Of a stretch of 64,000 nucleotides of DNA, positions 1 to 64,000 are shown piece by piece. The stretch's first letter is position 1. Each line of letters starts with the position of its first letter. The notes beneath the pieces are model-generated. The model did not search any database. It worked only from the letters and a program-made list of their open reading frames with translations, and was not told the DNA's origin. The position numbers were made by a program, and so were the translations under genes. Source of the DNA: Gnetum montanum (taxonomy: Eukaryota > Plantae > Gnetophyta); NCBI GenBank assembly GCA_015680685.1, contig MNCI01002384.1, positions 612,493-676,492 of the forward strand, written 5' to 3'.

Positions 1-1319
1 CAAGAACAATAAGAGCAATCTAAAAATCCCAAAATTACTTGCCAAGGATGATACTATCTAAACCACTAGCTAAACAATTTAAACAAAATAAAAAATAAAA
101 TACATAACTCACAGGACCATGACAAAGAGGCTGAAATCTTTTCTTTAACAAGCCATCTTACAAACAATCTTCTTTACAAATCTTCCAAGATCCCAAGTGT
201 GATGTGTGAGACCTCAAGTGATGATGATCCCCCCTCCTTGACCCGTAAAGCCTTTTTATAGGGTTCAAAGGTAGGTAGGGAAGTTACAAAATATCTTGGG
301 TGGTTTAACCACCATAGAGACAAAAAGGCTACGGTTGACAAGTGTCCCATGTAGTTGCCAAGTGTCTTCATTCAGTTGCCAAGTGTCTTCATTCAGTTGC
401 CAAGTGTTCACCATGGAGAGAAACAAGTTGCAGTTGACACGTGTCCCATTTAGTTGACAAGTGGCCATTGTGGAGATAAAGAGGTTGTAGTTGATAAGTA
501 GCCCTGGTCATGTATGATATTGGATAAATATCCCATGAATTTTTGTCTTTGAACATATTTTTTCATAGAGGTATCCAATATTTACATCCAATGTTCATCT
601 CCGTTAAGTTGAGGCTTTAGAAATGTTTCAAGAAACTCCTATGTCTAGTGAGGAAACTAGGTCTTTACAAATGAATATAATTGAATATAAAATTGATTTA
701 GGGGATGGCTGATGAAGAAGAAAAAAAAGAAAATATATTTTTCAAAAATGAAGGCCTTAAATAATTTTCCAAAGTTAACCGAGAGATATTGTGGAGGATG
801 TTGTATGTAGTTAAACCAACTGCCCGATAGCTTTTCCTACGCGTAGCCCATCTCCGCAGCTTATGCTCTGCTCCACTGAACTTGTCTCACCCACTGAACC
901 TCTCGAAAATACGATGGTAGTTGGAACCACTTCTACGCACGATTCAGCAGCAGTTGCCATCTCTTTCTTTGTCTCTCCTGGTCTTGCTCCCGCTCCTTGT
1001 CTCTGCGTGGATTCCTGAACTTGGTCTTAGGCTTTGATGGGAAAAACAATTCACCTTGATGATGATGCCCTCTTGGAACTCCTACGGCCCAACGTTGGGA
1101 CCAACAGCGTTGGCGTTCCAGCAAGTTGATCGGCCCATCGCAGCTGACGTGAACGGCAGAAATGATGCATCTGTCCTTCTCGATTAAACCTATTTTCTTG
1201 TCATATATTGCCAGCATCAAAAAGCTTTTTTAACCGTGGGGTTGATCTCATTTCCCGAAGCAGAGACATCAAGTTGCAGAGACACGGCCTTCACCAGAAA
1301 TCTTCTTGTTAAGCCGTGA

Positions 1320-1730
1320 GCACATCAACTGCCCTGATTGTCAACCACCATGGTGACCTCTCTCCATAAAAGACCCTATAACCCTCATTAGGTGAAACCA
1401 AGCCTTCATCAAGCACGATTCCAACATTAAGCTTCCTGAAAACCTCAAACTCCACAAAATTTTTAGCTCTTTCATGGCCTCCAATCTCCTCGTCTGGAAC
1501 AAACGAAAGATGTAGAGTTCCAGTTGGAACAAAACCCTTGCTGTTGAGATTCCTGACGGCTTCCAAGTACTGAGTGGGGACACACTTCATGTCCTGAGAG
1601 CTCCGCACGAAGATATTGCCTTGCTCATCTCTAGTCACCTGGAAAGGCCGATGAACCCGCTTTTCTTCCTCTGTGGTCACAACATCCATGTGAAAATTCA
1701 GCAGAATGGAGGGCAGATTTGCTTCGCTGA
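1320..1730 (-). pseudogene. ACY1: Captured aminoacylase-1 (M20 peptidase) fragment inside LTR U3
   Basis: LPSILLNFHMDVV...GNIFVRSSQDMKC..QYLEA...LSFVPDEEIGG...VLDEG...FYGERSPWWLTIRA matches plant aminoacylase-1 motifs. It is an internal fragment only, with substitutions at conserved sites (RGSQD>RSSQD). Confidence 0.9.
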
Positions 1731-2170
1731 GGATCAGATCTTGGGCATGCGTGAACGAATCAGAGAAAGAAAGTAGATCACTGGCAGTAAAATCGACAAT
1801 TCTAGCTACTGCTGTTATGCGTGGGAGGCTTGAAACCATTGCCGAGGCTGAGGCTAAGACTGAGAAGAAGGAGCTTGAAAACATGGCTTTTGGAAGGCTT
1901 GGTAGGAGCCTCTCCAGCAGTAGCAGCGTTAGTTTGAAATTGGAGTGGTGCCATAGTTTGTGTAGATGCAGGTGCAGAGGGTGGGTGTTATTTAGAGTTA
2001 GGCTTTACAAACTCATCATTGCACGCTTGGCTAGAGCATGGGATTCGTATGTACGCTTCATGAACCGCTTCACCACCAAGACTCACATTTCTTCTTCTTC
2101 TTCTTTTGATGCATTTCGTTCACACTATTGAATCCATTATTTGGTCATACATTTGTTCTTTGTTTTCTTT
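1731..2170 (+). pseudogene. Probable captured 3' part of an unidentified host gene (ORF end, stop, T-rich 3'UTR-like tail), opposite to ACY1
   Basis: Open frame to TGA at 2131 (…LARAWDSYVRFMNRF…), then a T-rich tail. CpG is retained. Not shared with the other LTR copies. Confidence 0.45.
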
Positions 2171-2564
2171 TTCTTGGCCAACAATTGGGATTGAGATTGT
2201 CTAAGCTGACTAGAAGTTGCCTTACATTCATTACCTTCCCATATCTTATGGAGGTTAACTAAACCCACTTCTTGACTTGTACATCAATACATGTTTGTAG
2301 ATCCAGTGAATACTTCTTTGGCACTAAAATAGCTTGTAGAAGATTGTCATGAACTCTGAACAATTGATCATTTGTCTTAAACAAAACTGTATTTGCTAGT
2401 GAATCAATTAGAGAAAAACCTTTCAAACTACCAACCCAACACCTCTGAAAAGTCTTCATCCAATGAAATATTGGCAATATTTAAATTAGGGTGAATGTTA
2501 GTTATATGATTAGCTTCACAACCTAACAAAGCCTGCTCCATTAAATGGCCAAAATGTGCCAACA

Positions 2565-12152: not shown

Positions 12153-12425
12153 GACATATGTCTCCAATTTGCTTGCCCTTGTACCCATAACCATTTACCC
12201 TTCTTAGCCTAGTTTAAACATTATTTGCATGTATTGTTTTATGTTACTTTGTTTTGACCTTACTTTGCACTTAACCTAGAGTTTGTTCTCATTTACAATT
12301 TACCTTTTATGCCTTGTCTATTTTAGAATATAAAATATGAAAAATAGCATAAAAAATTTAAAATCTAAAAAATTTATAAAAATTTCAAAACAAAAAATTG
12401 ATAAAAATTTCCCTTTCGATTCATA

Positions 12426-12855
12426 TGGCCTACCGTGGCCTAAAACTAGCAAATCATGATGGCCTGCTAAGGCCTAAAACTAGTAACATCATGGCTTGCC
12501 ATGGCCTAAAACTAGCAAATCATGAAGGCTTGGCATGGCCTAAAATTGGCAAATTGTGATGGCCCACTAAGGCCTAAAACTGGCAACATCACAGCCTACC
12601 ATGACCTAAAATTGGTAAATTGTGAAGACTTGCCATGGCCTAGAATTGGCAAATTGTGAAGGTCCATGATGGCCTAAAACTGGCAAATCATGATGGCCTA
12701 CCATGGCCTAAAATTGGTAAATCATAAAGGCCCATCATGACCTAAAACTAGCAAATTGTGAAGGTCCATCATGGCCTAAAATTGGCAAATTATGATGGCC
12801 CGCCATGGCTTAAAACTGACAAATTGTGATGGTCCTCCATGGCCTAAAACTAGCA
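12426..12855 (+). repeat. 13-unit ~33 bp tandem array (pseudoknot-like motif)
   Basis: Unit consensus ggcc-c-gcca-t-ggcc-taaaac-tggc-aaatyrtga. Confidence 0.9.
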
Positions 12856-13149
12856 AAACTCTTATAACCCATTATATCCAATCACAACTACATGAGTTAG
12901 CCAACTTAGTCTTATAACATGAGTAAAAACATAAAAACATATAATATGCATAAAACTAGAAATACTAAAACATATAAACAAAATCATAGTTCAAAATAAT
13001 AATCAAAATGTCTATAACATAATAGCCAAGGTCACATAGTGTGACAAAAGTTTAAACAATGCATAAAATAATAAATTGTCTCTCAACAACCAAAGGCTAA
13101 CACTAGCCATAACATCATAATAACAACATCAACAATAATAAATATAAGT

Positions 13150-18622: not shown

Positions 18623-21600
18623 TTTGAAACAATAGTGCAAAAACCTTCAAAATCTTCAAGCTCTTGGTAATGGCACTACTCCTTGATGGAGAATAAGTGA
18701 GAAACACCAAGGATTGATAGAATATAAGCCAAAATTGATGCAAGAGCTATCCACCTATGTGTTGCATGTGTGCAAATGAGTCTTGGAATGGATTTTGGTA
18801 AAACTAAGAAATAAAAATCAATCCTACACTTATGTGTCTCCTTCAAAAACCCCTTGCCCAATTCACTCACTTAACTCATAGTGAATTGATAGTGTAAAGG
18901 GAGAAAGTCCTAGCTACGTTGGGATGGTGGGAAGTGTGAAGCAAAAACACCATTTAAATTTAGGTGGACTCCATGAGGCACCTCCCAAGTAATGGGATTC
19001 ACTACCAAAATTGCCACGTACATTGGGGTTGAACTTCCACGAAGCCTTGGGATGCATTCTTGAACTCAAAACCCACCTCATCCACATTGGCCAGCATGAT
19101 CTAGCCATCTCACTTACAACACATCAAGAAACCATGAACCCCATACCAAATTTGGAAGCTGGATGTCAACATTAAGAAATACCAAGTCTTGAAGGAGGTA
19201 GGAACTCATTATAGAACTTACTATTTTGGGTAATAACATTGGGCAAAAGCCCAACCATTCTAGCCAATGTTTCTCTAAGCGGGATGGTACTTTCCAAAAC
19301 TAATTAGACCTCAATTTGACTCTGGAATGATCTTGAAAAGCCTAAAACCCCAATGGAAGCCTTTTCCAGCTCCGAAACCTGATCAAACCCAACAAACAGT
19401 GGCAAAAACTATGAATTCCAATGGAGCCACACTAGGGGCCATCCTAACCACATTGGCCAATGTGGTCTAAGCATGGTTGGATGGGGTGTAAATATAAAAT
19501 ACCAAAAATAGCCTACAAATTGACACATCATGGCCTTTATACCTTCCCAAAGTCTCTGGTAATAAAAAATCAACTAAAAATTAGTCAAATTTTACATCAA
19601 GCCCCTACCCATGTTGCTAAGGCCCTCACCCATGCTAACTAGCATGGGTTCTCTTAGAATAAGTTACAAAAGCCATAAATATATCAAATTGAGCTCAAAG
19701 CTCACCCCTATGACCCTAAAAACCTACTAGAGCCTCTAGAGACTACCAAACCCCAAAAATTGAGTCAAAATGGTAAAAATCTATCATTTCACCTCCATCC
19801 ATGCTGAGGATATTCTAGCCAGTGTAGCCCGAGGGGGCATGATCATACAAACCATTGAACAAACTCCAAAATTGACAACACTATGTCAAAACCTTGGCCA
19901 TCGACACTAGTAATCTTGAAAATTTAAGAACTTGGTCAATTTCACACTAGAACTTATCAAAAGCCAAAACTCAAGTGGACCCACACTAAGGAAGGCTAGA
20001 GCCATGCTGGCTAGGGTGGCTTTAGTGTGGGTGAGGTTTTTGATCAATTTTTCTAGTCCCATAACACACCAAACAATCTAAAACTTGACTCAGTAAGCCT
20101 ATAACCTCAAGGCCTTAAAAGAAATTGCAATTTAGCCTTGTTTTAGCCATAAAACTTCATATCTTACTCATCCACATTGGGGTTACCCCTAACCACACTA
20201 GTTAGTGTAGCTCTAGATCCCAAAACCCACTTTTTTTTGCAAATTTTGACTTCAAGATGGTCAATTCTAACCCTCATGACCTTATGCTATCATTGGAAGT
20301 CCATAAAACATAAAATTTGATCTTGAGATGCCATAAATTCAATTTTCTCATGCATCCACATTGGGGCCATGCTAGCTAGCATAGTTCCAATGTGGATAAA
20401 AATTCCAAGTTGCATTTATGGCTTCTAAAGGATCAAATTGACATCAAAATTGACAAATCTTCATCTCTGTTGCACTACATTAACCATACAAGGGAATAGG
20501 ATCCCAAAATTGATCATAGTCAACCTAGAAAATCACATTCCACCCTATCGACATTGAGGCTCATCCCACCCACATTGGCCAGCGTGGGTCTAGCATGGAT
20601 GCCCAGAAAAGCCTTATTTTTGATGTTAAATAGCCTCAAAACAACCTCCTTAAGTGTCCAAACTGAACCATCAACCTCGTAGCCTCTTACCATGGCCTGC
20701 TTTGGCCTAAAACTAACAAAATCTAATCATGTTTGATCAAGATTGACCATCTTTTTCCACATGTTTCTCAAACTATCTAATTTGGCCTTATTCCATGGTG
20801 TTTTCACTTATTTTTGACATTATTGTGCATTATTGACCTCTATCGATAGGCCATTTGATGTCATTTGGTTTAAACCTTCATCATTTTAGCATCATTTGCC
20901 CCTGTTCCATCAAGTGTCCCCATTATTTGGTGCCAACTAACCTTGATTGACATGGCTTGACATTAGTCCATGTCGTGTAACCTCAGTATGACCTTGATTC
21001 AATACCATTTGATGGGGTTCAACCATCATTTGATCATCATTTGGGCTTCATTCAATCCACTTGGTCATCGTTTGGGTGTCATTTGGCCTTATTTCATGCT
21101 AACTAGTCTTTTAGCTACCTCATTTACTTTGCATTTTCTTTTATGGCCTTAGTTGACGATGCTTTCACCCTTTTTGACATCATTTGATAGAGCTCAACCA
21201 TCATTTGGCCTTCATTTGATCTTATTTAGCCTTCATTCCATCTTACTTATGTCAACCTACCCATCATAACCTTTGTATCCTTGTTGGAACATTGTTTGAC
21301 CATTGATGTAGTATGATTTGGCTTATCGTGACATTATTGCTATAGTATTTTACATTATTTTGGTGCTATTTGCTCATTTTATTGCATAGGTGCCACTTAA
21401 TATGATTATGGTTGATATGCTGGATTGGAGTATGGACACCTGAAAGCAAATTAGTTTGCCTTTGAGCCTAAGTAGACCCCATGGTGATGTTGAATGATTT
21501 ATTAACGTCAATTGCCTAGATCTTAAGTGTGAGAGTCTTGTTGATCACATATCCTTGATAGAGAAACCTTTAAAATGGCCTTAAAGCCTAGTCAAAACCC

Positions 21601-24600
21601 TTGACCTTGAGGCTAGAAACATTACTAAAGGCTCTCTAGTTGAGGCTCCTATCACAATACATGGTGATAAGGAGAAAACATTGAAACGAAGTTCCTCACT
21701 GGAACCTTGACAAGCTCAAGACATCACCAAGGTGCTCCAAGATAACATTAAGGTCTTTGCCTAGTCATATGAAGATATGCCATGTCTTTACCCACTCCTA
21801 GTGCAACATAACATCATACTTGATCCTAGTATCAATCCAATTAAGCAAAAAGTTCATAAGATTAGATCAGATTTAGCCCTGGCAGTTCGCGATGAAATCA
21901 CAAAACTATATCAAGTTGGTTTCATTAGAGTTGTTGATTATGTGGAATGGGTGTCTAACATAGTGGTAGTTCCTAAGAAAATTTGGAGTATACGTATTTG
22001 CATTGATTTCTGAGACCTGAATAAGGCAACCATTAAAGATGATTTTCCATTACCTAGTATTGACCAATTTATCGATACTATGATTGAACATGCCTTGTTA
22101 TCCTTCATGGATGGGTTCTCGGGATACAATCAAGTTAGGATTAACTTAGAGCATCAACTTTGTACAACCTTCATGACCCCTTAGGGAACCTTTTGCTACA
22201 CCATGATGCCCTTTGGTCTAAAGAATGTAAGAGCAACTTATCAATGAGCCACGATGTATATCTTTAATGATTATATGCTAGGATGACTTAATGAATACAT
22301 AGACAATATAGCTGTTAAGTCCAAGGTGGCCAATGATCATGTGCATGACCTTGGCCTTGTGCTTAAATAATGACTCAAGTAGGAGCTTAGGCTTAACCTC
22401 AAGAACTATTTCTTTGTAAAATTAGTAAGATTCTTAGCTTTGTATTATCTAAAGTAAGGATACATATCAATCCTAATAAGGTTAAAGCCATATTCAACTT
22501 GGCAATACCAACCAACCTTAAGGAGCTTTGGGGACTGCAAGGTAGGTTACAATTTATCCATAGGTTTATCGCTAGACTTACGGATAAGTCACAACCCATG
22601 CAACACTTGCTTAAGAAAGGAGTTCACTATGAGTGGATGGCTCAATGTTAAGAAGCCTTTGAAAAAATTAAGCAAGAGTAGGCACAACTACCAATGGTCT
22701 ATCCACCACAAAAGGATAGACCTATTTACATCTACCTTGCTATCTCTAACACGTTTATTGCCTCTTGACTTTGTTATAAACGAGATGAAGGAGAAAAGTT
22801 AGTACTGTACTATCTAAGCCGTGCATTAATTGCCTATGAGACTTGATACACTAAAGTGAAAAAGTATTGTCTAGCCCTAGTCTTCTTTTTAAAGAAGTAA
22901 AGACACTACCTCTTTAGGAGCCAAGTTAATGTCATTTACAAGGATGACATGCTTAGAGCCATAACAACCAATATCTACGAAAGTAGCCATATAGCTCATT
23001 GGAAAGCCATAACAATGGAGTTTGACCTTCATTACATCTTCCAAGCCTCAATAAAGGGTCAAGCTATAGCCACACAACTTACTGTTTCCCTAGTAGAAGA
23101 CCATGTAGCCATTGACCTTGAATTCTTGGACAAACATGTCAACATTGTTAGCAAAGCACCCAAGGGCTATGAGGCAATTACGCACTTCAATGGAGCTTCA
23201 CTACCCATGGGACCAGTGTTGCTACCATCATAACATTCTTGTTTGGTGAAATCCAATCCTTCGCTTATAGTTTTCTATTTTCATGCACCGACAATGTGGC
23301 GAAGTATAAAAGATTGATTACGGGAATGATGGTAGCCTGTGACTAAGGAATCAAGAACCTAATGATAAAAGGTGACTTAAAACTAGTGGTTAACTAAGTG
23401 ACCAAGGTTTAAGCTTGTAAAGCTAAACATCTACAACCTTATTATGACCTAGGAAAGAAACTTATGCAATAAGTTATAAACATTGGTATCCAACACATAC
23501 CCCAAACTAAGAACACTCTAGCTGTTGTTGTTGCAACTTTGGCCCTTAGTGTGATGCTTGATGTGTTTAGCAAGTTACCTTTGTTAACTATGAATTGTGC
23601 TATTACCATCATGCAGAACACTGGAGACAACTCCATAGCCATAGTTCATATCGCTCTTCCAAAGGAATGGTATGATGATATCAAGCTTTTCCTTATGCAT
23701 GGTGAAACTTCATAGGGCCTAATTGCCTCTCAAAATGATGCTGTATGTAAAAGATTAAAATAGTATGTGTTGGCGACCGTTTGGGACGCAATCGCCAACG
23801 AGTGTTCTCGAATAGGATTTAGGTGCTTGCTGGTCTTTGGCAACACCAAGGCCCAGATACCTCCAAATAGACTCAGTAGTTAATGTGAGTATGTGTGTGT
23901 GCTGTTGCGGTGTGTGGTTGTGAAAAATGAAATGATTGCGTTGTGTGTAAACTACAAATGACTTATCTTAAAGAGATTCAGCCAACTTTGCCAAGTACTG
24001 TGAGTTGTTGAGAGTTCCTATTTTGTTCAATTACCTAGTCTACGCAGTCCTTATAATACCTACTTGTAACAAATAAAATTTTGCAAAAACATTTGAGCAC
24101 AACTCTGCGAATCTACTTCTAATTTTCCCCAGAGAAAGAGATAGTTCCACAAGAAAACTAGAAATAGAGCGAGATTCAATGGAAATAGAAAGAAGAGAAA
24201 AAGAAAGCAGATTTGTGTAAAGATCTCAAATGTTTAAACAAGGTAAAATGATACGAGTAAACACTTCGCAATAAAGCTATCCCAAATTCAATAACTACGA
24301 ATTGTTCAAACTTCCAAGGCTCAAATAAGCAATTTCTTCAAGACAATCCTACTATGCTATCAAAAAATTGCTGCGTAAACTATCACGTACGAGACTCCAT
24401 TTTGGCTAGATAATGGATGTCAATAATTGCATTCAATAGAACCTTCAAATGACTTGACAATTTCTGATTGAAATACCATGGAGATTCACTTTAAAGATAA
24501 AAAGAAGCTATTCTGGTCCCATCAAAATACCAAAGATTTTCTGAACCCTCTTGACTATTGAATCGTTCAACGGCTTAACTAAAAGCAGAGGCTCTCTTAC

Positions 24601-26087
24601 AACAATCCCAATAGTAGTTTTTATACGTTGCACAATAATCAAATTCGCTACTAAAATGCTCTTAAGGCTTTCAAACAGAAGTGCTTCTATGGCAAAATTT
24701 TAATAGAAATTTTCTATCATGCAACAAGAACAATAAGAGCAATCTAAAAATCCCAAAATTACTTGCCAAGCATGATACTATCTAAATCACTAGCTAAAAA
24801 ATTTAAACAAAATAAAAATAAAACATAACTCACAGGACTATGACAAAGAGGCTGAAATCTTTTCTTTAGCTAGTCATCTTACAAGCAATCTTTCACAATT
24901 TCTTCTTTACAATGCTCTTCCAAGACCCAAAGTGTGTCTCCAAGTGAGAGCTCCAAAGTGTGATGATCCCAAGTCTTCCCCCATTGTGATATATTTTCTC
25001 TTACCCCTGAAGCCTTTTTATAGGGTTCAAACGGTAGTTACATTCTAAAATATCTTAGCTAACTTTTCTTCCAAGTAAGGAAGTTAATTACTTGCCCAAC
25101 AAGTTAGGAGATCTCACTTGCCCAACAAGTTAGGAAGTTGTAACTATTTTGGGTGGTTATAACCACGATAGAGATAAAAAAGCTGCAGCTGATAAGTGTC
25201 CCATTTAATTGACAAGTGGCCCTTCAGTTGCCAAGTAGTCACCATGGAGATAAACAAGTTGTAGTTAACAAGTGGCCTTTGTATAAAAGCTATGGTGGCC
25301 AAGTGTCCTATTGTTGAATAAATATCCCATGCATATATTTTAAAATTTTTTAATTATTTTTTTATCCTAATAGTAATAGTAACGATGGAGTTGAGGCATA
25401 CACAGATGGATAAATATATACGTATGTAGGTACAGCCAAATGCATAAGTGGAGTTGCAATGCCACGTTTTCAGCACACGGTGGATGTCATGTGAAGTGCT
25501 CCTAGATGAACACATTGGTGACTTTTGGCTTACCCAACACGTGGTCCAATCGTTGTTGCAATATCAAAAGAGCTGTCACTACCGTAGCTACTCTTGCCAT
25601 GAAACACCAAAGAGGTGCACGCTTACATCCACTATTTGGCACCATCGTCTCTATCAGGTACATTGCATAGTTGTAGTGTCTCAGCATTCTAGTGTATTTT
25701 CTATAAAAATACTACATAGCAAGGTTTTCACCACTCCTAGAACCTAGAGAGGAGCCTTGTAATGCAGAAACATGAATTGTTTGAAACTGTCCATGCTCTA
25801 CAGAAAATGTAGCTCTTTCACAAGTACCAGATTACCATCTTTGCCTATGGTTTTAAGGCATTAGCTGTTGCTGCTTGCTATCCCGTCACTAGTGCTGACG
25901 ATGTCGCAGGGATGGATAAAGTTGACAGTGGGGATGCTGCTTTCATCGTTAACGTGCCGGTCGCTGCCTTGCCTCTAGTGTTTCTAGAAAATTGGCATAT
26001 CACACCTAGGTTGCGTGGAGTTTGTTTGGTTTGGAATTGGATCAGGAAGTGGACACGTCGACTGATGATGGCATGCTAACAATTGTC

Positions 26088-26720
26088 TTAACATCCTGGT
26101 GGTTGTGCGTTCGCCTTCTGCAGGGCCCTTTCTGTCCTAATTTTCTCTATAATTTTGGCAGCTTTACCAGACCCGATTTTCAAGTAGTGTAGAAGTTTGT
26201 TATGAGATAGGTCGATGTCGCCAGCCTTGATGATGCTACAAAGGTCACCATGCATGTTAACGTTGAAGGTTATGCAGGGATATCCTTCCACGTGGGTAAT
26301 TGGAGACAGTGTTGCTGAAGCTTCTCACATCATCAAAATCCACAACTTCTTTGAATTACTCTCCATCTCGATGCGGTCCCAGATTGGCCTCTTGCATTCG
26401 CGCCACCGACCCAAAATCTTTCTGTAGCACAAAGCGATTATTGTAGCTGCAACAAAAAAAAACAAAACTTCCTTTGTATGCTACTATTTTTGCTGCTGGA
26501 TTCGGCTTTTGCTGCTTTGACATGAACGATGCTTTTGAGCAGAACGGACATGGTGATGAAAATCGCGTCATTTCTAGGCTCGTTTTGGAAGATTCAACTT
26601 GGCTGTCCGATAACTCCGCCGGCCTCATGTGCCTCCCGCTTCTTTCTTCTTTATTTTCCACCACCTCGTGCGTGTTGCATTTTTGCCAGAGTCCATTACA
26701 TGCTTTTGTAAACCACTGAC
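26088..26720. other. Unidentified CpG-rich, exon-like cargo segments
   Basis: Coding-like composition and unique to this LTR copy. Near-open minus frame at 26088-26425. Confidence 0.4.
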
Positions 26721-26726
26721 CATATT

Positions 26727-27278
26727 TAAAACACTCGGACATCTAAGTCCTATAGAACAATGGGGACATTTAATTATAAGAGGCTCACAATCTTGATACC
26801 ATTGCTCATCATCCAGGAGTCTGGAGAAAAATGACTTTTCTGTATCTCTTGCCACAGCATCTATGGTTGTTTTTATTTTAAACTTGGATGAATCTAATCC
26901 AAGACAATCTGCAAGTCACCCTGCACTTGTGCCTTGTATGGGAGCACATAAGTGAGTTACAACATGGTGAATCTATTGAGATAGATAATAATTGATATCA
27001 ATTATCCAACCATCATTGTCCCTTTTCAATTCCTCTGGATGCCTAGCCCTTTTAGCAATCCCTGTTGTCCCAGCCTCTGATCCCTACTGGCAGCAAATAA
27101 TGTATGGAATTACCTTAAAAACACCTATAGTATGACCTTTTTTCTTCATTTGTAAAGCCACCTAAATGTGTGGTTGATTTTTGGAATCAAGATACTCCTC
27201 AGGATGGTTAGTTAGAGATTTGGCAATGACATATTTTTCAAGCTCCACTTGACCATTGTAAATCTCCTCTTGAACCTT
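26727..27278 (-). pseudogene. POLA1: Captured intronless fragment of DNA polymerase alpha catalytic subunit
   Basis: KVQEEIYNGQVELEKYVIAKSLTNHPEEYLDSKNQPHI*VAL...RARHPEEL...IDINYYLSQ*IHHVVTHLCAPIQGTSAG*LADCLGLDSSKF...DDEQWYQDCEPLIIKCPHC. This is the polB C-terminus running into the first Zn finger. Confidence 0.92.
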
Positions 27279-29836
27279 CTATTCATTGTCTTTCATATGT
27301 GCATCATTATTTCCACCAATAATGTTATGGTCTCCCTGATATGCATGCCTTTCCTCCTTAAGGGCTCCATGCAGGGAATGCTTTAGTTGATGATGTAGGC
27401 AACTAATGATGTTTCTTTGAGGACAATACTCTAGTATACCTAATCCACCTCACAGCATGTTCCAAATAAGAGTTAGACAGACCTCTAGAATATCCACAAA
27501 AGAGATGGACTGGAAGAAGGTGAACATCTTCAGTAGGGATAAGCAATGATCAAAGAATTCTACAGACTTGAGCCATGGTTTCAATCGTCTCATATCTCTG
27601 TTCCATGAAATGGCCAAATGTGCCAACAGTATGTTATCATAGGTGATAACACATTATGTTAACAGTACTATGATGGCATATTGTTAGTGTGCTTGGGCAA
27701 AACTGAAGCTTGCATAGCCCTTGGGCAAGTTCATGAAAGTGTAAGTTCACACAAGTGTATAAGGGGGACATATAGGACCTAGAGCCATGGCTGCTAAAAC
27801 TAGATGACAAGGCTATTAGTGGCCTTATATGGAGAGTGAATACTTATAGAAGGTTAAAACTTGTGACACTTGTCAATGGCATAGCAACTTGATACACGTT
27901 CTCCCAACTAAGTTACACACTACTTAGATAACTTGGTCATTTTAATGGTGGGGATTGGACATCATTAAACCTATAATGCCAAAGTCTTCTGTAGGGCATA
28001 GTTTCATCATCACTACAATTGAATACTTCACAAAGTGGGTTGAAGCTATTCCCCTGTGGAAGAAAATGTCTCAACAAGTCTATAGGTTTATGTTGGATAA
28101 CATAGTAGCTCATTTTAGTATACCTATGATCATAGTCATAGATAATGGACCGCAATTTAGTAACCAAGAAACACAAGTCTTTTGTAAAGACCTAGGCATT
28201 AAACATTCTTTCTCATCACCATACTACCAATGGACAAGATGAACCCAGTAATAAGGCCATCATAAACTTGATGAAAAAGATGCTGAACAATAGTAGACAT
28301 AAGTGGCATGAGTAGCTTGTCCATGCACTTTGGGCTTACCAAACTACGTATCGAACTGCAATTGGTGTAACTCCATATAGCTTGGTTTATAAATCTAAAG
28401 TTGTTTTGCCTCTTAAATTGCAGGTACCATCACTTAAGGTAGCTTTATCAAACTTCATTAACAATGAACAAAACAAGGAGTTGTGTACCATTGACTTGGA
28501 TTTGATGGAAGAGCAATGGGTACAAATGCTTGCTCACATTGAGCATAACCAGGAGAGGTAGAAACAATAGCATCACCATGGCCTAAACAAAAAAAATATT
28601 AAGGATGAAGACCTAGTCCTCAAGGCTATTTGTGAGCATGCAGACAAGTTCTTGGCCAACTGGGAGGGACCTTTCTTGATCATTAAGGCCTATGATAATG
28701 GAGCCTTCAAGATAGCAGACATGGATGAGAATGAATTGGCCAATCTGGTTAATCATTCCTACCTAAAGCCTTATTACATCTAATGCAAATTTCTTTATAG
28801 GTACAAACCAACAGTTGACATCGATGACCTTCACAACAAGCAAGCTTGCATGACATTTCTCTATCTCTCTCTCTATTCAACACATGTGAAATGAGCTATA
28901 AAACTTTGTAATAATAGTGACCTATGGTGACTTGGGTTTTTGATTGTCTCATGTGGCCTTATGCATTATCATGTAATAACATGCTCACTTTGTCTTGTTC
29001 CCTTATCCTCTTGGTGTTGTGCTTGTAGGATGAAGCTTGAAGTTAGAACAAAGGTGCAACTTGTCATGTTAGCAAGTTATCATGTGGCCTTGATGCATGT
29101 AATTTGGGTAGCTCATCTTGCCATGCCAAAAGTGCTTATTTTACATCATTTTCATCACCACTACTTGTGCCCAACCCCCCAGTCTAATTATGATCTTCTT
29201 TGCCTTGAACAACAGTGATGACCTATGTTTGAAACTTGTGTTGTGGCCATAAGATGTTTCCTTCGTCATGCTTAACCATCAAGTCTATTAAATGTAACAC
29301 CTCTCATTCAATGAGAAAACAAAATTAAATCTAGCCTTGGTAATGAAACCTAATGAAGGTTTTACCCTGCAAAAAAAGGAACAAGCAAATTGCCAAAAAT
29401 TTGAAAGGTTGTTGAAGATTGAGAGATAGATCAATGGCTTTGAACATGCAAAGGAACAAGCCTAATGACCTAATAAACCTTGGAGTAGGATATTGGTTCC
29501 TCAAGAACATTACTAAGTGATCTTTATCTTGAAAACACGAAGCATAAAGACCTCATCAACCATTCAACATGTCATTGCCATAACTGTAACCATGGTATCA
29601 ACATTTGGAAATAACTGTTAACCTTGCGACCATTTCCTCATCATCAAACATAAACTTTAGCCTCTATCATCTCCTCGTACCACTTATTCCATTGTCATAA
29701 GTACTCTTTGGCATGGTTTGATACTACTAAATCAAGCACAAAGAGTGAATGGTGGTGATGGACCTCTAGTGATGTTTTGTGTTCTTTGTCAATGTCTCTT
29801 GGGTCAATCCTCAAAAAATCAACAAAGAGGGGCCAA

Positions 29837-35700: not shown

Positions 35701-38480
35701 TCTGAGTCATGAATTTGTGATGATGTGGATTAGGTGTAAGTAACCCTAGTATTACTATATGATTTATGATTAATTATATTATGTACTACAATTAGTATTT
35801 AGGTGATGGATGTATGGTGTGCCTTGGGGGTAGTAGAGATGGATTGCTAGTTTCCTTGGATGTTAATAAAAATTTGTGCCATTCATATATATGTGCATGG
35901 ATTACCACTCAGATTGATTATGTGTTCTTTTAGTTATCATTAATGTTTTTTTTTGGTTAGGAAGTGAGTAATTGTGAGTAATGAATGTAGGGTTGTAGGA
36001 AGTAATGAAAATTGTGTCCTAGGTGCATCATGATCATGATGTTTAAAAATTTAGTATTTCTACTTGAGTAAGAGGTGTGGCATCCTTCCTATGCAGTTGC
36101 ACTAGAAAGGTTGGTAGGATGCAAGTTGTAGTATAGGTGTGGTAAGATTGTGGCAAGTCTCGCTTTCTTATTTTTAGACCATGTGAGTTGCTCTTAGTTG
36201 TGGTTAGGTTGCAATTAGATCATGGTGAGTTTTGGATGTAATTTTCTTTCCTAGCACGAGCTGGTATTAGTTGCAATGCTTGAACATTAAGGTCATAGTC
36301 CTTTTTAAAAAGCTATCATGAGTGCGTTGCAAAGTCACAATGAGAGGATATTCTAGATATGTGCTTTGGGTGAATGTAAAAACATTTGAAATTATATTTT
36401 GGACTTGTCTGTAATGTTTGTTGCATGGTACATGATTTTGATATGCACTTGTAAAATTGTATGATTGCTAGCATGTTCAGTTAATGGCTATAGCATAGGT
36501 TTTTTTATGATAAGTGATTGTTCAATTATTTATTAGTCAGATAGATTATAACATGATGTGATATGAGTATTATCAATATGATGTGTGTACATGTGACACA
36601 TATGATGATGATGTGATGCTTTATGCTTATGATGATTATTTTTCAATAATATGTTTATTATGATAATGCCATGGATGTGATGTGTATATGTGGATTGTAG
36701 ACATGACATGAGGGTGTCAACTGGTTAGTGATGGGGCATGCTCGAGGAGTTGGGGTTATCCCTGCTAGATGCATTAGTGAGGCTCTTGTCTTAGTCCTCA
36801 TACTGAGAGTGAGAGGGTATAGGTTGGGCCTATGATTGGTATGGAATCTTAGGACATGTGGACATATGCAGATGCACTTACTAGAAGGTTATAGATCTAG
36901 GGCTATGAATGAGGTACCAAGTACTATAATTAGTAGTGATATATGATAATGAAATTAATAATAGACCTCTAGGTATTGATTGTATTATAAGTAATCATGT
37001 CAATGATATCATGCGTTATATAGAGTGGGAATGTGTTGGTTGCCATAGACGATGTGCTTTCCTTGAGGGTCTAGTTACTGGAATAAAGTTTTATATGTTG
37101 TTATGTTTTAAGTATATAGGTGGATGAATCCTTAGAGCACTAAATGTTGGGCTATTGTGTTATGTATGGTTTGATGTGGTTCCTTGAAGCATAATATGCT
37201 AGAAGCCTATATTGATTATGATTATGTAATGAGTACATATATTGTGATAATGCTATTGTGACACCGTGGATATGATGTACATGTACTAGTCATGCATGAG
37301 TAGATTATGCGTCATGTGGTAAATGTATGAGTTGTGATAGATGTGGTTGGATGCATGTTATGTGTGTACCATATTGATCTTAATGTAGGCTTTTCTAATT
37401 TTTCTAGACCTTACCTTCAACACAACATCATACTCCACATCTGTAGGTGGCATGTAAAGACTTCCACTCAATCATATATTGACCTCTTTATATCCAAGTG
37501 ATGAAGCTAGAAGCCCAAAAGGATAATAGATCTAAGGGAGGTAATGGAATCCTTGTTTCTACATTTGTGTGCTTCTTATTACATATTTGCTTATGAGAGA
37601 TGGATGTATTTGTAGATGGCATAGGATTGGACTAATCATAAGACATGGATCTTATGTATAGTACTTACATGATGCATATAGTGACAAGACATGTATTAGA
37701 TATATAGACTAATATGTTGTGATGCTTTATGATATGGGTTTTCTATGTATTTGTCTTGGACATGTGTACATGCATGAGTAAATTATATGTCATGTGGTAG
37801 ATGTATGAGTTGTGACTGATGTGGCTAGATGCATGTTATGTGTGTGCCATATTGGCCTTGATGCAAGTTACTCTAATTTTCCGAAACCTCACCTCCAATA
37901 CAATATTGTACTCTACATCTAGAGGGAGTGTGTAAAGACTCCACTTAGTCATGTACTAGCCTCTTTATATCCAAGTGATTAAGCTAGAAGCATAGAAGAC
38001 TAGTAGGTTTGAGAGAGGTGATGGAATCCTTGGTTCTATGTTCGTGTGCTTCTTGTTACATATTTTCTTATGAGAGATGGATGTATTTGTAGATGGTGTA
38101 GTCTTGGACTAATTATGAGCCATGACTCTTATGTATAGTACTTACATGATGTATATAGTGACAATATGTGTTAGATGTATAGACTAATATGATGTGCTGC
38201 TTTGTGATATGGGTTTACCATGTATTTGTCTTGGACATGCTTATATGTATGACACTACTAGAGCATGATGTTATGTATACCAATTTAATGTGTGTGTCAT
38301 GCTAATTTGGTTTTGTACATTTGAGATTTTTACAGAGTGATTTATGGTCTTCCACTATGTTATGCAATCCATTCACATGTTTTAATATCCCAATTTGCAT
38401 GCTTTGTGTTAACATGTAGTTCTTACCTGAGCTAGGCTTAGGCTAGATGTTAGGATGTCATAGAGTGGTATTAGAGTAGG
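32749..38480 (+). mobile_element. Old AT-rich LTR remnants (chromovirus-like), the last followed by a degenerate tRNA-iMet PBS
   Basis: LTR-like ends ggggtataaca (35094) and ggatgtcata (38462), then tggtattagag at 38466 (TGGTATCAGAG). Strong CpG depletion. Boundaries are uncertain. Confidence 0.45.
37290..38239 (+). repeat. Diverged tandem duplication, ~475 bp x2
   Basis: 37290-37764 aligns with 37765-38239. Both end in tgtatttgtcttggacatg. Confidence 0.85.
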
Positions 38481-53600: not shown

Positions 53601-54077
53601 CATGAACAATTGGTCTACGCATTATGGGCATACAGAACGACACATCACACATCTACAAGTAAAATGCCATATAGTCTTGTGTATGGATCTGAAGCTATTT
53701 TACCTTTAGAGTTGTAGGTTTCCTCATTGCGGATAGCTCTCTTCAGCCTCCTCGATGAAAGTCAAAACAATGAACTACGCATCGTTGACCTTGACTCGAT
53801 AGAGGAGGAACATGTGCGAACGCTCGATCAAATCGAATGGTCCCAGAAACAACAGCGGCAATGACACAAACATGATCTGCATAAGAGCCCGATCAAAGAA
53901 GGAGACTTAGTCCTTAAAGCCATATGTGAACACTCAGATAAATTCTCAGCCAACTAAGAAGGGCCTTACTTAGTCACCAAAGCGTACCATGACGGGGCAT
54001 TCAAACTGGTTGACATGGATGGGAACGAGTTCGCTAATCCTACAAATCACTTGTACCTGAAACGGTATTATGTTTGA
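50620..54077 (+). pseudogene. Element B pol: RT, RNase H, aRH, integrase with GPY motif
   Basis: YVDD, YLATSDS, YFDGAS...TNN..YEGL...GDSQLV, HEGLCGGH..CEICQ, TDNGPQF, SNGQAEATNK, EGPY. A few stops and frameshifts. Confidence 0.95.
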
Positions 54078-54096: not shown

Positions 54097-54463
54097 AAGT
54101 CCTGGCATCATGACTTAAAACTGATACCATAGAAAAGTCCTGGCATCATGACTTAAAATTGATACCATAGAAAAGTCCTGGCATCATGACGTAAAACTGA
54201 TACCACAGATGGTCCTAGAGTCATGACGATAAACTGACAACATAGAGCTTTGTCTAGTATGACACTAAACTACCACATCTATCTGCCATGATGTGAAACT
54301 AGCATCTAGAGTCCACTAAGACTATAAACTGGTGTACCTCTTTACAATCCGCTATGACTATAAACTAGTAATGCACCGTTCGCTACGATGCTAAACTAGT
54401 GCTGTCCAAGGGGTTAGGACGTGAAACTAACCTGCAATAGTCTGCTAAGACTATAAACTGGTG
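54097..54463 (+). repeat. 11-unit array of covarying pseudoknot-like motifs after the pol stop
   Basis: Conserved GAC..AAAC core with variable but mutually complementary flanks. Confidence 0.85.
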
Positions 54464-60139: not shown

Positions 60140-62181
60140 TGTTGGTGACCGTTTGGGATGCGACTGCCAACGAGTGTCCTCGAACAAGATTTAGGTGCTT
60201 GCTGGTCTCTGGCAACACCAAGGCCCAGATACCTCCAAATAGACTTAGTAGTTAATGTGAGTATGTGTGTGTGTTGTTGCGGTGTGCGATTATGAAAAAT
60301 GAAACGATTGCATTGTGTGTAAACTATAATGACTTATCTTAAAGAGATTCAGCCAACTTTGCCAAGTACTATGAGTTGTTGAGAGTTCCTATTTTTTTCA
60401 ATTACCTAGTCTATGCGGTCCTTATAATACCTACTTGTAACAAAAAAAGTTTTGCAAAAACATTTGAGCACAACTCTACGAATCTACTTCTAATTTTCCC
60501 TAGAGAAAGAGATAGTTCTACAAGAAAACTAGAAATAGAGCGAGATTCAATGGAAATAGACAAATTTGTGTAAAGGTCTAAAATGTTGAAACAAGGTAAA
60601 ATGATATGAGTAAACACTTCACAATAAAGCTATCCCAAATTCAATAACTACGAATTGTTCAAACTTCCAAGGCTCAAATAATCAATTTCTTCAAGACAAT
60701 CCTACTATGCTACCAAAAAATTACTGCATAAACTATCATGTACAAGACTCCATTTTGCCTAGATAATGGATGTCAACAATTGCATTCAACAGAACCTTCA
60801 AAAGACTTGACAATTTCTGATTGAATACCACGGAGATTCACTTTAAAGATAAAAGAAGCTATTCTGGTCCCATCAAAATACCAAAGATTTTCTAAACCCT
60901 CTTGACTATTGAATCATTCAATGGCTTGATTACATGTAGAGGCTCTCTTACAACAATCTCAATAGCGGTTCTTATACATTGCACAATAATAAAATTCACT
61001 ACTAAAATGCTCTTAAGGATTTCAAACACAAGCTCTTCTATGAAAAAATTTTAATAGAAATTTTCTATCATGCAACAAGAACAATAAGAGCAATCTAAAA
61101 ATCCCAAAATTACTTGCCAAGCATGATACTATCTAAACCACTAGCTAAAAAATTTGAACAAAATAAAAAATAATAAGCATAACTCACAGGACTATGACAA
61201 AGAGGCAGAAATGTTGTCTTTAACAAGTCATCTTACAAGCAATCCTTCACAATGTCTTCTTTACAAATGCTCCTTCCAAGAGTGTTGTGTTTCCCTTCTA
61301 ATCCCTGAAGCTTTTTTATAGGGTTCAAAAGGTAGTTAGATATTCCAAAATATCTTGGCTAACTTCTCTCCCAAGTAAGGAAGTTATAACTTGCCCAACT
61401 AGTTAGGAGATATTTCTTGCCAATCTAGTTAGGAAGTTATAACTTAGGAGAAAATCATGCTAACATTGGCATGTGTAAATATTACAAATATTTTATAAGC
61501 AACAACCTATATAATAATTTTTTTAAAAATAAATCCAAGATCTCCAGATTATAAGAGCTTCATATAATTGTTATTTTATTTTTATTTTAGGATTTTAATT
61601 ATCCACCATGTATAAAGCCTTAGTAATTCAATTGGGATAATTAAATTAATGCTAGATATTTAACAAGGGCTCCATACCATTATTGCATGTGAGAAATTGC
61701 TGAAATTATTTTTAGCCACCGGGCCATATGAAATTGTAATTTTATTTTGTGACTTCAATTCCATGCGTTCGGGTTTTGCACTTGTCTTTAGCGATGACGG
61801 TTTCTTTCAAATAAACTGTAACCCTGATTCATCGACATTGGCTAAATAATCTCCTAGTTTCGCTGATTCAGTTGTGCACCTATCTTGCTGTGTCTTCGTG
61901 TCTCTGTGACTGCACTTGATGGACTGGAAATGGCGATGACGAATGCATTGACATCGGGCACTGCTGCTATTTTTGGTAAGGTTGTTGTGTGTTCCATAAA
62001 AAAACTACGGTTGTTGTAACCTTTTCCACCGTGCTGCCTGTATGATTTTTGAAAGCATCTATCATCTCTTGCAACACCTGTTTCCATCTGGTCATTGAAA
62101 CTACCTTTGATGAATTGATCTTGGTGAATAAACGTAAGATGAGAGATGAAATCCCTACTCAAATGCTTGCTGAATAATTGN

Positions 62182-62802
62182 GTGCTGGTAATAAGGGTAC
62201 CGCCATACCAATTTACACGGATCAACAATTCTAACAGCTGAGGGCTATCAAACAGGATACTANCGTTCATTTTATTTGCCGAACCTGAGGCCAGGTACGG
62301 GTCTGACGTAATTGTAGAGGGGCCAATACTTTCTCTTCCTTTAAATCAAATGTTTCAATAGACATCAAATTCTCTAATTCTGATCTTTTCATATGAATTT
62401 TCACGTGAGAGCAGCTGCATCGCCTACATAAAATGAAGCTTCTGTAGGAGAATAGTGTATTCCGCTGGAACTTTCGGGAAGCTTTTGCAGGAGATCAATT
62501 TTCACTGATTTACAGCAATGTGTTGAGGCTCGTATTTTCCACAGAAGCTCAAGAAGGTCCTTAACAGCATGCATCCAATGGTAAGGAGTAGGCGAAAGTG
62601 GCAAAGTGACAACATGAGAAACATCTAAAGAAGCAGTGGGCGATTAGGGCGTGGCAAAGAAAAGTGAAGGCCACGGCTGGGGTTTTGTGCTTGGAGGCTG
62701 CTAAAACCCAGATTTTGCAACTAGTATCCTGTTTGATAGCCCTCAGCTGTTAGAATTGTTGATCCGTGTAAATTGGTATGGCGGTACCCTTATTACCAGC
62801 AC
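62182..62802. repeat. 81-bp perfect inverted repeat (62182-62262 / 62722-62802)
   Basis: Exact reverse complements. The left arm is bracketed by single Ns at 62181 and 62263. Confidence 0.75.
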
Positions 62803-63280
62803 GACCTGGACTTCCAGATTGATGCACAAAAATCTCTGATGTACTCGGCATCTCATAATGTATGATCAAACCCACCTTCGGAATGTCCAGTCCACGAGCA
62901 GCAACATCTGTTGCAATTAACACATTGAAGCGACTGGCTCTGAAACCATTCGGCGTTCTCTCTTACTGGTTCTGTGAAATATTCGCATGCAATGCTTAAC
63001 ACTAGAGAATGCCTTGCAAAGACCTTGATTAGTTATCGACATCTCTCTTTGTTTGGGTGAAGACTATGCATTTTACTCCCTTGGCTTGCTCAATAATCAG
63101 TGTACTCACAATCGAACATTTGCCACACACAGATGCCGCAATTGAGTAGAGAGGGATTGTGTCTGCTAGCCTTAAGGTTTCTTCACCAACAAGATCAATA
63201 ACCATAGGACTTTTAAAATATTTTCTAGAGAGCTTTTACATCTAGGGTAGCATTGTAGTAGAGAAAAGCATGTCCTAGCA
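62712..63280 (-). pseudogene. Captured intronless fragment of a DEAD-box RNA helicase (RH9/RH53, PMH-like)
   Basis: MLFSTT..KYFKSPMVIDLVGE..LAD.I.LYSI...KCIVFTQTKRD...[38 protein letters not shown]...[12 protein letters not shown]. Several stops. Confidence 0.9.
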
Positions 63281-63499
63281 CTCTTTTCCAGTTTTACCCC
63301 ATGTATTTTCATAACCACCAACAACATCAACCTCAGATTTTTTTTTTAATTTGAGACTTTTCTAGTGGTTTTTCCCAGCATTATTCATATTTTTCCAGTG
63401 GCTTCACAACATATTGGTTTTTTTATGCAGTTGTTTTACAAATTGCCTTTTGCCAGTATCTACTTTTGCTATTCCATGAAATGGTCAAATGTGCCAACA

Positions 63500-63512
63500 T
63501 TTCTGCCCCCTT
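63500..63512 (-). promoter_or_regulatory. Polypurine tract
   Basis: aagggggcagaaa immediately precedes TGTTGGCAC on the minus strand. Confidence 0.8.
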
Positions 63513-63715
63513 AAAAGCTTAAAGAAATTTATGTAGGCCCATTTTAAAACTGAAACATACTCAAAATTTTATTGAATTTTTACAGCTGAACAAAAATATT
63601 TTTGGAGGAAAATTCCCATCAAACATAAGGTTTGATGGTATAAAAATCTCATTCCTAAGAAAAACAACAAACTGTACATCAGCAAGTCCTTCATGGACTA
63701 TTCTAGAGATGGGAA

Positions 63716-64000
63716 CTAAATTGTGAGGGTTAGTCTAGTAGGACTCCTCATCTCTCTAACTATCTCATAGGCAATTTCTGACGTGATAAAGGTTGTTCTA
63801 TTGTTTTCTAGCTTGGTGGAGCTTTCAACTTGCTCTTCTTGAGCTTTTTCTTCAACAATCTTCTCATCTTCTTTTTTTGATGAATCCTTCTGTTCTTCCC
63901 AATTGGGTCCTTCATCTTCCTCTTGGGACACAAAGGCTTCTTCCCATGGCTCTTCGTTAGTTGGTTGCTCTTCTCCCCTCTCCTCTTCTTTGGTGCAATC
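63716..64000 (-). CDS. 3' end of an acidic (Glu-rich) ORF in the internal domain of the cargo-LTR element
   Basis: Open from the window edge: EEERGEEQPTNEEPWEEAFVSQEEDEGPNWEEQ...; ends about 200 bp before the PPT. Confidence 0.5.
   Translation of the reverse strand, partial: DCTKEEERGEEQPTNEEPWEEAFVSQEEDEGPNWEEQKDSSKKEDEKIVEEKAQEEQVESSTKLENNRTTFITSEIAYEIVREMRSPTRLTLTI

Follow-up and report, generated by a model that had tools for sequence, protein, structure and literature searches.

Host gene fragments within the U3 of related LTRs in Gnetum montanum

Three related LTRs in a 64,000-nucleotide stretch of the Gnetum montanum genome (the window) carry host-derived sequence within their U3. With a probability of about 0.7, they belong to a single abundant family of gymnosperm retrotransposons, whose reverse transcriptase switches template to co-packaged host mRNA and so fills a U3 slot of about 2 kb.

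The three copies (Table 1) have an outer end of 31-32 bp in common (E 4e-8 to 6e-4). At the other side they share a half with the TATA box, R and U5. Between copies 2 and 3 this arm (23768-25145 and 60140-61444) is 86.6% identical, with a K2P distance of 0.084 over 1157 sites. The TATA context is shared by all three copies and, by its positions in the sequence, lies between U3 and R. TG..CA is found at both ends of copies 2 and 3 and at one end of copy 1. The cargo occupies the part of U3 that lies upstream of the TATA box and inside the outer end. The slot that holds it measures 2.0, 2.3, and 2.0 kb in copies 1, 2, and 3. When the slots were compared with each other and with the whole window, nothing matched except simple repeats and a single internal duplication of 81 bp. 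A preliminary description of this DNA had proposed the shared halves, the unrelated sequence between them, the U3 position of the cargo, and a slot of roughly constant length, and it was right on all of these. It had also proposed that the cargo differs in every copy. This is true of these three but not genome-wide, as pieces of copy 2 are found in other diverged copies.

Table 1. Features of the three LTR copies and their cargo in the window.
Feature	Position	Strand	Remarks
Copy 1	1..2564	-	cut by window start; shows ~540 bp of conserved arm
Copy 1 TATA box	253-260	-	
Copy 1 slot	about 541-2532	-	
ACY1 (peptidase M20) fragment	1339..1719	-	copy 1; sense; within stop-free frame 2004-1312
Copy 1 outer end	2533-2564	-	
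Left TSD GTATG	23763..23767	.	5 bp; flanks copy 2
Copy 2, solo LTR	23768..27628	-	3861 bp; U3 start 27628, U5 end 23768
Copy 2 conserved R/U5 arm	23768..25014	-	86.6% identity to copy 3; short hairpin at U5 end
Copy 2 TATA box	25015-25022	-	TATA context common to copies 1-3
Copy 2 TATA and promoter-proximal repeats	25015..25334	-	26-bp array; CAAGTG-rich array
Copy 2 variable slot	25335..27597	-	about 2.26 kb; no match to other slots
Fatty acyl-CoA reductase (male-sterility domain family) fragment	25637..25851	-	copy 2; sense; 1 stop, 1 frameshift
Unnamed RNA-matched piece	26330..26640	.	copy 2; borders approximate
POLA1 fragment	26706..27275	-	copy 2; sense; intron-free; starts at exon start; 3' border approximate
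Unnamed mRNA piece	27273..27442	-	copy 2; 170 bp; in frame with POLA1
Copy 2 conserved U3 outer end	27598..27628	-	31 bp; from sequence comparison among copies
Right TSD GTATG	27629..27633	.	5 bp; flanks copy 2
Copy 3	60140..63499	-	3' LTR; its element extends past window end
Copy 3 TATA box	61313-61320	-	
Copy 3 slot	about 61445-63468	-	
N-flanked exact inverted repeat	62181..62263	.	middle of copy 3; 81 bp: 62182-62262 = 62802-62722
DEAD-box RH9/RH53 fragment	62714..63271	-	copy 3; sense
Copy 3 outer end	63469-63499	-	
Polypurine tract adjoining copy 3	63500..63512	-	13 nt, 12/13 purines

Copy 2 is a solo LTR. Its termini read TGTTGGC..GCCAACA, which gives TG..CA with 7-bp inverted ends. Solo LTRs are recognized by a target site duplication (TSD) of 4-6 bp, and copy 2 has both the GTATG repeats and a DNA contig of the empty site (run X1), which skips 3866 bases (3861 + 5). 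Both flanks are parts of a single older pol, within which copy 2 inserted. Of its promoter-proximal repeats, the 26-bp array is also present in copy 3 and the CAAGTG-rich array in copy 1. The hairpin at its U5 end has 43 nt and an energy, calculated without a shuffle control, of -17.7 kcal/mol.

Copy 3 has a polypurine tract in the position expected immediately before a 3' LTR. Beyond this tract lies a coding remnant that is not flank-like; a Pfam scan of one frame of the 500 bp of internal sequence gave no match. The tract and ends resemble those of the Ty3 non-chromovirus (Tat/Ogre/Athila) lineage, to which the element may belong. The ends and TSD of copy 2 and the polypurine tract of copy 3 thus bear out the earlier view that these are LTRs, rather than Pack-MULEs or Helitrons. 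Pack-MULEs have long terminal inverted repeats and TSDs of 8-11 bp, and capture genomic sequence with its introns. Here the inverted ends have 7 bp, the TSD 5 bp, and the POLA1 cargo no introns. Helitrons start with TC, end with CTRR, and leave no TSD, whereas copy 2 has TG..CA ends with a TSD.

It is very improbable that the unit is a Pack-type DNA transposon whose inverted ends are short (TG..CA) and whose cargo is enclosed by one long and one short arm. Copy 2 alone could be read in this way from its 7-bp terminal inverted repeat, TSD, and mosaic cargo. However, copy 3 has no TSD and adjoins a polypurine tract followed by the coding remnant, the TSD of copy 2 is only 5 bp long, the cargo is without introns, and the TATA box faces the long arm.

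A chimera of assembly, in which a collapsed repeat was fused to unrelated retrocopy contigs, has the least to recommend it. The N-flanked inverted 81-bp copy within copy 3 is probably an assembly fault, and no contig among the pieces listed spans all of copy 2. Against such a chimera, copy 2 is free of N bases, a perfect TSD surrounds the entire unit, the flanks continue one pol, the empty-site contig skips exactly this unit with one TSD, and the same design occurs three times.

The ACY1, POLA1, and RH9/53 pieces named in the preliminary description are recovered by Pfam with E values of 2.6e-15, 3.2e-17, and 3.1e-22. The ACY1 fragment also matches human aminoacylase-1 (E 8.2e-38). Another piece matches a fatty acyl-CoA reductase homolog from Pinus (E 8.9e-8, with tblastn too), and this homolog carries the Pfam domain Sterile. 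All four named pieces lie in the element's sense, for which the chance is 1 in 16. Two of the three long ones are coding exons interrupted by stops (POLA1, 4 in 190 codons; RH9/RH53, 7 in 186).

Two further pieces are delimited by RNA reads. The 170-bp piece next to POLA1 has RNA loose ends at both borders and a DNA depth about tenfold above that of the POLA1 piece. It has 1 stop in the POLA1 frame, compared with 3-6 in the remaining five frames; a search for its protein family found none. The other is covered by host RNA run X24 at a depth of 20-46, with loose ends at 26384, 26443, 26527, and 26589. Reading these ends as two 60-bp pieces was rejected. Because the loose letters resemble, by eye, the neighbouring window sequence, the region is more likely one diverged piece.

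Named or read-delimited pieces range from about 0.17 to 0.6 kb, so the 0.3-0.6 kb proposed earlier stands at its upper end but not at its lower. More than half of each slot has no name. None of 20 candidates was accepted for the plus-strand frame at 26330-26629, and neither three of the six frames of 25400-26700 nor one frame of 61700-62700 had a match in the PDB. Atlas matches for two short frames (a bacterial GAF at score 0.90; scores of 0.87) were not accepted, and Pfam matches to Lar, E1_UFD, and Herpes_UL3 in the cargo fell below the cut-off and were rejected.

Evidence that cargo comes from mRNA is provided by introns. Plant POLA1 genes have introns after residues 1249, 1277, 1344, and 1372 (numbered on P0001) in 6 of 6 loci, and after 1314 in 5 of 6. 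This map was made by spliced alignment of 6 of 20 metagenome loci, with non-gymnosperm or unidentified plants and one Ginkgo gene model as sources. Since the POLA1 cargo spans all of these 4-5 sites without any intron, its sequence indicates that it derives from spliced mRNA. By tblastn, exons break at the same sites in the remaining land-plant-like metagenome loci; locus L001 has no such breaks. At the site of residue 1277, the Ginkgo POLA1 gene model carries an insertion of 61 residues.

The RH and fatty acyl-CoA reductase pieces lend indirect support. The RH piece aligns with no gaps to four transcript-derived proteins over 196-209 residues, and a Ginkgo helicase gene model has a 54-residue insertion inside the same region. 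The fatty acyl-CoA reductase piece is without a roughly 30-residue insertion present in P0281. Helicase indels after residue 473 lie outside the RH piece and were dismissed as alignment noise. Short members of protein clusters were of no use for exon borders, and several were unrelated proteins.

At the one readable junction, the match to the upstream mRNA extends as far as 27273, and since POLA1 begins at AAG/GT, the two overlap by 5-6 nt. AG/GT is also a common word at exon borders, and the microhomology reading rests on this one junction.

Alternatively, capture may have been assisted by splicing, on the model of oncogene transduction by retroviruses. In this model, transcription of an element that sits in a host intron continues past its end, host exons are spliced to a donor provided by the element or by older cargo, and one template switch repairs the 3' end of the chimeric RNA. 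This route is compatible with template switching onto host mRNA and likewise predicts intron-free sense cargo, but it is unlikely. The POLA1 piece does start exactly at an exon start (6 of 6 loci have an intron after residue 1211), and the AAG/GT before it is a possible donor. Yet this is a single junction, where microhomology accounts for the same letters. A donor in the U3 of the 5' LTR would sit upstream of the TATA box and need transcription from elsewhere, and the upstream 170-bp piece is cut inside the mRNA on both sides.

Template switching onto host mRNA could work as follows. Only the outer 31 bp of U3 (the integrase end beside the polypurine tract) and the TATA-proximal 150-300 bp would have to be kept, so the slot between them would tolerate any sequence. 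The slot region would be the first to be copied following minus-strand transfer. Reverse transcriptase would jump to a co-packaged host mRNA and then back, replacing part of the slot. Repeated rounds would lead to a mosaic that turns over one piece at a time, and captured cargo would then likely be duplicated into both LTRs of each descendant. A slot length near 2 kb might reflect replacement instead of insertion, or a length limit. Most likely, the cargo has no function and decays as the rest of the element does; the roles suggested in the preliminary description, as borrowed enhancers, silencing camouflage, or siRNA sources, found no support. In the available part of one report, captures by maize Sireviruses are without orientation bias (10.1101/777037), so LTR capture does not favour the sense orientation in general.

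Depth and junctions in reads and contigs were obtained for copy 2. In run X1, summed contig depth, which is not equal to copy number, is 172-3639 over the slot and 485,000-1,005,000 over the arm. The mean and median ratios of arm to slot are 939 and 1820 in DNA run X1 and 720 and 1766 in DNA run X5. For the slot bin of greatest depth the ratio is still at least 173; in the raw reads of run X21 it is 118. The earlier claim of a large family-wide library of fragments agrees with an arm about 700-1800 times deeper than the slot in summed contig depth, and this same excess removes the prospect of only a few fixed cargo types.

The depth profile of the slot correlates between runs (rho 0.87, 16 bins) and steps about 20-fold from piece to piece, as predicted by piecewise turnover. 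A single slot position is covered by up to 32 contigs. Because arm depth exceeds slot depth roughly a thousand-fold, and slot pieces recur in several diverged copies (85-94% alike, under two species labels), the cargo is diverse and has been amplified but is not unique to each copy. A DNA contig across a POLA1 exon-exon junction has a depth of 126 (X1) and 265 (X5), compared with 4.5-14 in other listed contigs, and differs from both the window and the RNA.

None of 16 contigs listed, of about 86,000 pieces, joins cargo to the conserved arm. No RNA dataset among the matches listed carries copy 2, and searching the metagenome collection for the outer-end motif gave 0 matches. Loose-end consensuses of run X21 at both termini of copy 2 have an agreement of 0.46-0.48, with varied flanks.

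The slots might also have been filled at the DNA level, with breaks in U3 after integration patched separately in each copy by retrocopies, cDNA, or gene conversion. All three slots differ, and captured fragments are many in gymnosperm genomes (PMC13477047), yet this is quite improbable. The same cargo recurs in those several 85-94% alike copies, and slot position and length are alike in all three. Across 1.3 kb, neither copy 2 nor copy 3 has cargo-like filler in its R/U5 arm, and all four named pieces are in sense.

A stronger form of the template-switching account is doubtful, though less so than these alternatives. It holds that the slot is dedicated and length-controlled, kept by selection, and continuously samples the host transcriptome, with cassette types numbering in the thousands and LTRs in the tens of thousands. 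If so, sense scraps at the 3' ends of all element transcripts would make silencing costly for the host or yield small RNA against host genes from sites across the genome. A tree of the cassettes would then serve as a dated fossil record of transcription in the germ line.

LTR elements usually take up mRNA only by rare accident, and are crippled by it. A U3 slot would cost no coding capacity, be doubled in each cycle, and persist in solo LTRs. Since its pieces probably entered from host mRNA through copying slips, the family would amount to a large collection of host-gene scraps spread over the genome. With thousands of junctions in a single family, the rules of template switching could be measured directly, as could which host mRNAs enter the particle, and the epigenetic-conflict model could be tested. 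In practice, repeat libraries split such LTRs into spurious families, and spurious gene models arise from them.

The comparisons that follow draw on partial texts of the cited papers. LTR-mediated retroposition (Tan et al. 2016, PMC5131818) accounts for 15 elements in Drosophila, with a median microsimilarity of 6 bp at switch points. As here, partial mRNA pieces lie amid LTR-element sequence, introns are lost (here in POLA1), and retrocopies can be multi-gene chimeras. Their secondary amplification resembles the several diverged DNA copies of copy 2 cargo, one of them across an exon junction. Unlike here, those retrocopies replace internal ORFs in rare single elements; the present cargo lies inside U3, persists in a solo LTR, and seems to be the rule in its family (3 of 3 copies).

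Maize Bs1 is also a plant LTR element and holds fragments of three host genes, but as one fixed internal chimera forming an ORF, rather than a variable LTR slot with broken frames (PMC13317346, PMC5131818). Other maize LTR elements, including Sireviruses, carry exon fragments as well. These captures are rare: they occur in 425 intact elements, never with fragments of more than one gene, and in 3% of Sireviruses, and the text available does not give their position within the element (PMC2774510, 10.1101/777037).

A conifer genome has about 480,000 TEs with exon fragments, Ty3 and Ty1 elements among them, and two or more fragments occur in only 13.68% of carriers (PMC13477047). TEs with captured fragments had no methylation advantage in Platycladus. 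The same survey gives roughly 400,000 exon fragments per gymnosperm genome and terms the mechanism poorly understood; in the portion available, fragments are not placed in the LTR and no family is named. With no coding cost, doubling, and survival in solo LTRs, a U3 slot could explain part of this number, and the present family could be a main source of such counts in its own genome.

The crapaud family of Podospora (PMC10787394) is similar in design. R/U5 is conserved, U3 varies in both LTRs, and template switching was proposed. It has 14 subfamilies, with no host-gene origin reported in the accessible text, compared with an estimated hundreds to thousands of mRNA-derived slot types here. In BARE-2, foreign sequence likewise entered the LTR via abnormal template switching, but in one event and from the retrotransposon Wis-2 rather than host mRNA (PMC13317346). 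The literature searches turned up no family-wide capture slot within an LTR. Capture of RNA by LTR elements is already known; new here are the intron-free POLA1 cargo and an apparently family-wide slot in U3.

Host-gene pieces carried inside LTRs are real in this family, and the design is probably family-wide. Self-comparison of the window finds one repeat in three copies (see the table). On the minus strand, each copy consists of a common outer end of 31-32 bp, a variable U3 stretch 2.0-2.3 kb long (the slot), a set of short repeats close to the promoter and a common TATA box. Copies 2 and 3 share ~1.25 kb of R/U5, here called the arm (K2P 0.084); the R/U5 labels follow from the positions of the TATA box and the purine tract (PPT), and the borders are putative.

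Copy 2 is a clean insertion, because its flanks continue a single pol, aligning end to end with another pol copy at ~52400-53490, and a contig from DNA run X1 omits 3866 bases at this site, the element plus one TSD. Copy 3 has the arrangement expected of a 3' LTR. The preliminary description was thus right to call these insertions LTRs with a common outer end and a common TATA/R/U5 half; that they are DNA transposons is very improbable.

Features of the window
Feature	Position	Details
Copy 1	<1-2564	minus; truncated by window start
Copy 2	23768-27628	minus; first letters TGTTGGC, last letters GCCAACA; GTATG at either side
Copy 3	60140-63499	minus; no TSD; then 13-nt purine tract, minus strand
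Promoter-proximal U3 (copies 1, 2, 3)	250-560, 25030-25340, 61330-61445	modular
Fatty acyl-CoA reductase (FAR) piece	25851-25637	copy 2; profile-free search, one frame
Fifth piece, unnamed	27273-27442	170 bp; borders from RNA reads
Sixth piece, unnamed	near 26330-26640	covered by RNA reads
Stop-free frame with ACY1 piece	1312-2004, minus	about 225-231 codons
Inverted 81-bp copy	62181-62263	exact, of 62722-62802; copy 3, mid-slot, between the window's only two N
Glutamate-rich ORF remnant	63513-64000, minus	immediately upstream of copy 3 PPT
Second E-rich remnant	46332-46667	
Decayed Ty3 pol	21576-23310, 27949-28776, 50780-54070	RT, RNase H, second RNase H-like domain, integrase
Tandem array	12421-12857	34-bp unit, 13 copies
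Tandem array	54097-54246	38-bp unit, 4 copies
Head-to-tail duplication	37291-38252	~480 bp, identity 83%

Promoter-proximal U3 carries a CAAGTG/CACGTG-rich array in copy 1 and a 26-bp array in copy 3. Both occur together in copy 2, and this distribution therefore suggests recombination between subfamilies. A Pfam scan of the first glutamate-rich remnant gave no match in the single frame scanned. The host site of copy 2 is one of the decayed pol copies, which we take to be Tat-like. The two tandem arrays have the word TAAAACTG in common.

The slots match neither one another nor the remaining window, as had been claimed for the ~2 kb between the shared ends. A Pfam scan covering all 18 frames recognises one domain per copy: peptidase M20 (copy 1), DNA_pol_B (copy 2) and Helicase_C (copy 3). 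The proposed mosaic of gene pieces is thus borne out by ACY1, POLA1 and helicase matches, with FAR added, although more than half of each slot is unnamed. All four named pieces lie in sense relative to the element, as does the cleanest frame of the fifth. Top POLA1 matches are a Pinus-containing cluster (64%) and then Cryptomeria (62%); top single-domain helicase matches are Welwitschia (69%) and Araucaria (67%), and Pinus is among the FAR matches. These matches identify the host as a gymnosperm.

The POLA1 piece has 4 stops within 190 codons and the helicase piece 7 within 186. All four POLA1 stops face Q or R of the reference protein, as C-to-T decay would give. The ACY1 frame seems to take in the N-terminus, with an internal deletion, and this piece may be a younger capture than the stop-ridden two.

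The inverted duplication in copy 3 probably stems from faulty assembly. Both the helicase piece and the stretch joining it to the outer end and PPT are on the side free of N, and misassembly is the least credible explanation of the slots.

Evidence for capture through RNA can be found in POLA1. Its piece aligns with a transcript-derived protein over ~200 residues with 3 gap positions. Of 20 metagenome loci fetched, six were picked as distinct sequences and spliced-aligned; GT-AG introns follow residues 1211, 1249, 1277, 1344 and 1372 in all six and 1314 in five, whereas the same program places zero introns in the cargo. One 40% relative (L001) is intronless in this region, and L004-L010, L013 and L018 apparently lack the 1314 intron of other plant loci (L004 by spliced alignment). 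Since a Ginkgo gene model has an insertion at the 1277 site, gymnosperms likely have at least that intron. Aligned with four proteins, the helicase piece shows no gaps, and it is without a 54-residue insertion seen in a Ginkgo model; the FAR piece lacks an insertion present in a homolog (P0281). These two observations point to splicing indirectly. The cargo is RNA-derived.

Four sequencing runs were compared with copy 2, the only copy with read data, at 80% likeness. DNA run X5 differs from X1 in organism label and study; X1, possibly the window's own sample, is left out of the independent evidence. In X1, contig depths add up to 485,000-1,005,000 along the arm and to 172-3639 along the slot, and the X5 profile has the same shape. 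The mean arm/slot ratio is 939 in X1 and 720 in X5; the medians are 1820 and 1766, and the deepest slot bin gives 224 and 173. For the raw RNA reads of X21 the mean ratio is 118. Because summed contig depth is not copy number, and overlapping short contigs inflate repeats, the ratio is trusted to no more than its scale, two to three orders of magnitude. Were copy 2 representative, slot types in the family would number in the hundreds to thousands, in line with the large genome-wide fragment library proposed earlier.

The claim that cargo is different in every copy stands for the three window slots but fails genome-wide: contigs listed on copy 2 cargo are 85-94% alike, with up to 32 over one position. 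One contig spans a POLA1 exon-exon junction (depth 126 in X1, 265 in X5), and at two listed sites it is unlike both window and RNA. None of the 16 pieces listed bridges cargo and arm. Depth steps of ~20-fold between pieces, maxima towards both slot ends and agreement between runs (rho 0.87) suggest piecewise turnover, with edge pieces older and more widely shared; donor gene families could also contribute to the steps. Filler gained after insertion is an improbable source of the pieces.

It is established that U3, copied once from the RNA 3' end, comes to lie in both LTRs, and that LTR-element RT can jump onto mRNA packaged with the element where the two share a short word (PMC5131818, PMC13317346). 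In this family, constraint on U3 would fall on two parts only, the integrase end and the region next to the promoter, so that switches to host mRNA between them would be costless and heritable, and repeated switches across a very large family would yield mosaics. We give such template switching a probability of about 70%.

Alternatively, splicing may have assisted capture. The POLA1 piece begins precisely at the exon after residue 1211, and its start has 5-6 letters in common with the adjoining mRNA piece. This single junction fits both microhomology-guided template switching and a splice junction; overall, splice-assisted capture is judged rather unlikely.

A full-text search, with most subscription papers outside its coverage, turned up no account of an LTR that carries a slot for host mRNA throughout a family. 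None appears in the text seen of PMC13477047, whose figure 7E and supplementary tables 38-39 could show such LTRs, nor in the portions seen of PMC13317346, PMC5131818, PMC2774510, PMC3726574, 10.1101/777037, 10.64898/2026.03.01.708851 and PMC10787394. Template switching to mRNA is itself a known mechanism; what is unusual here is its place, inside the LTR, and its scale.
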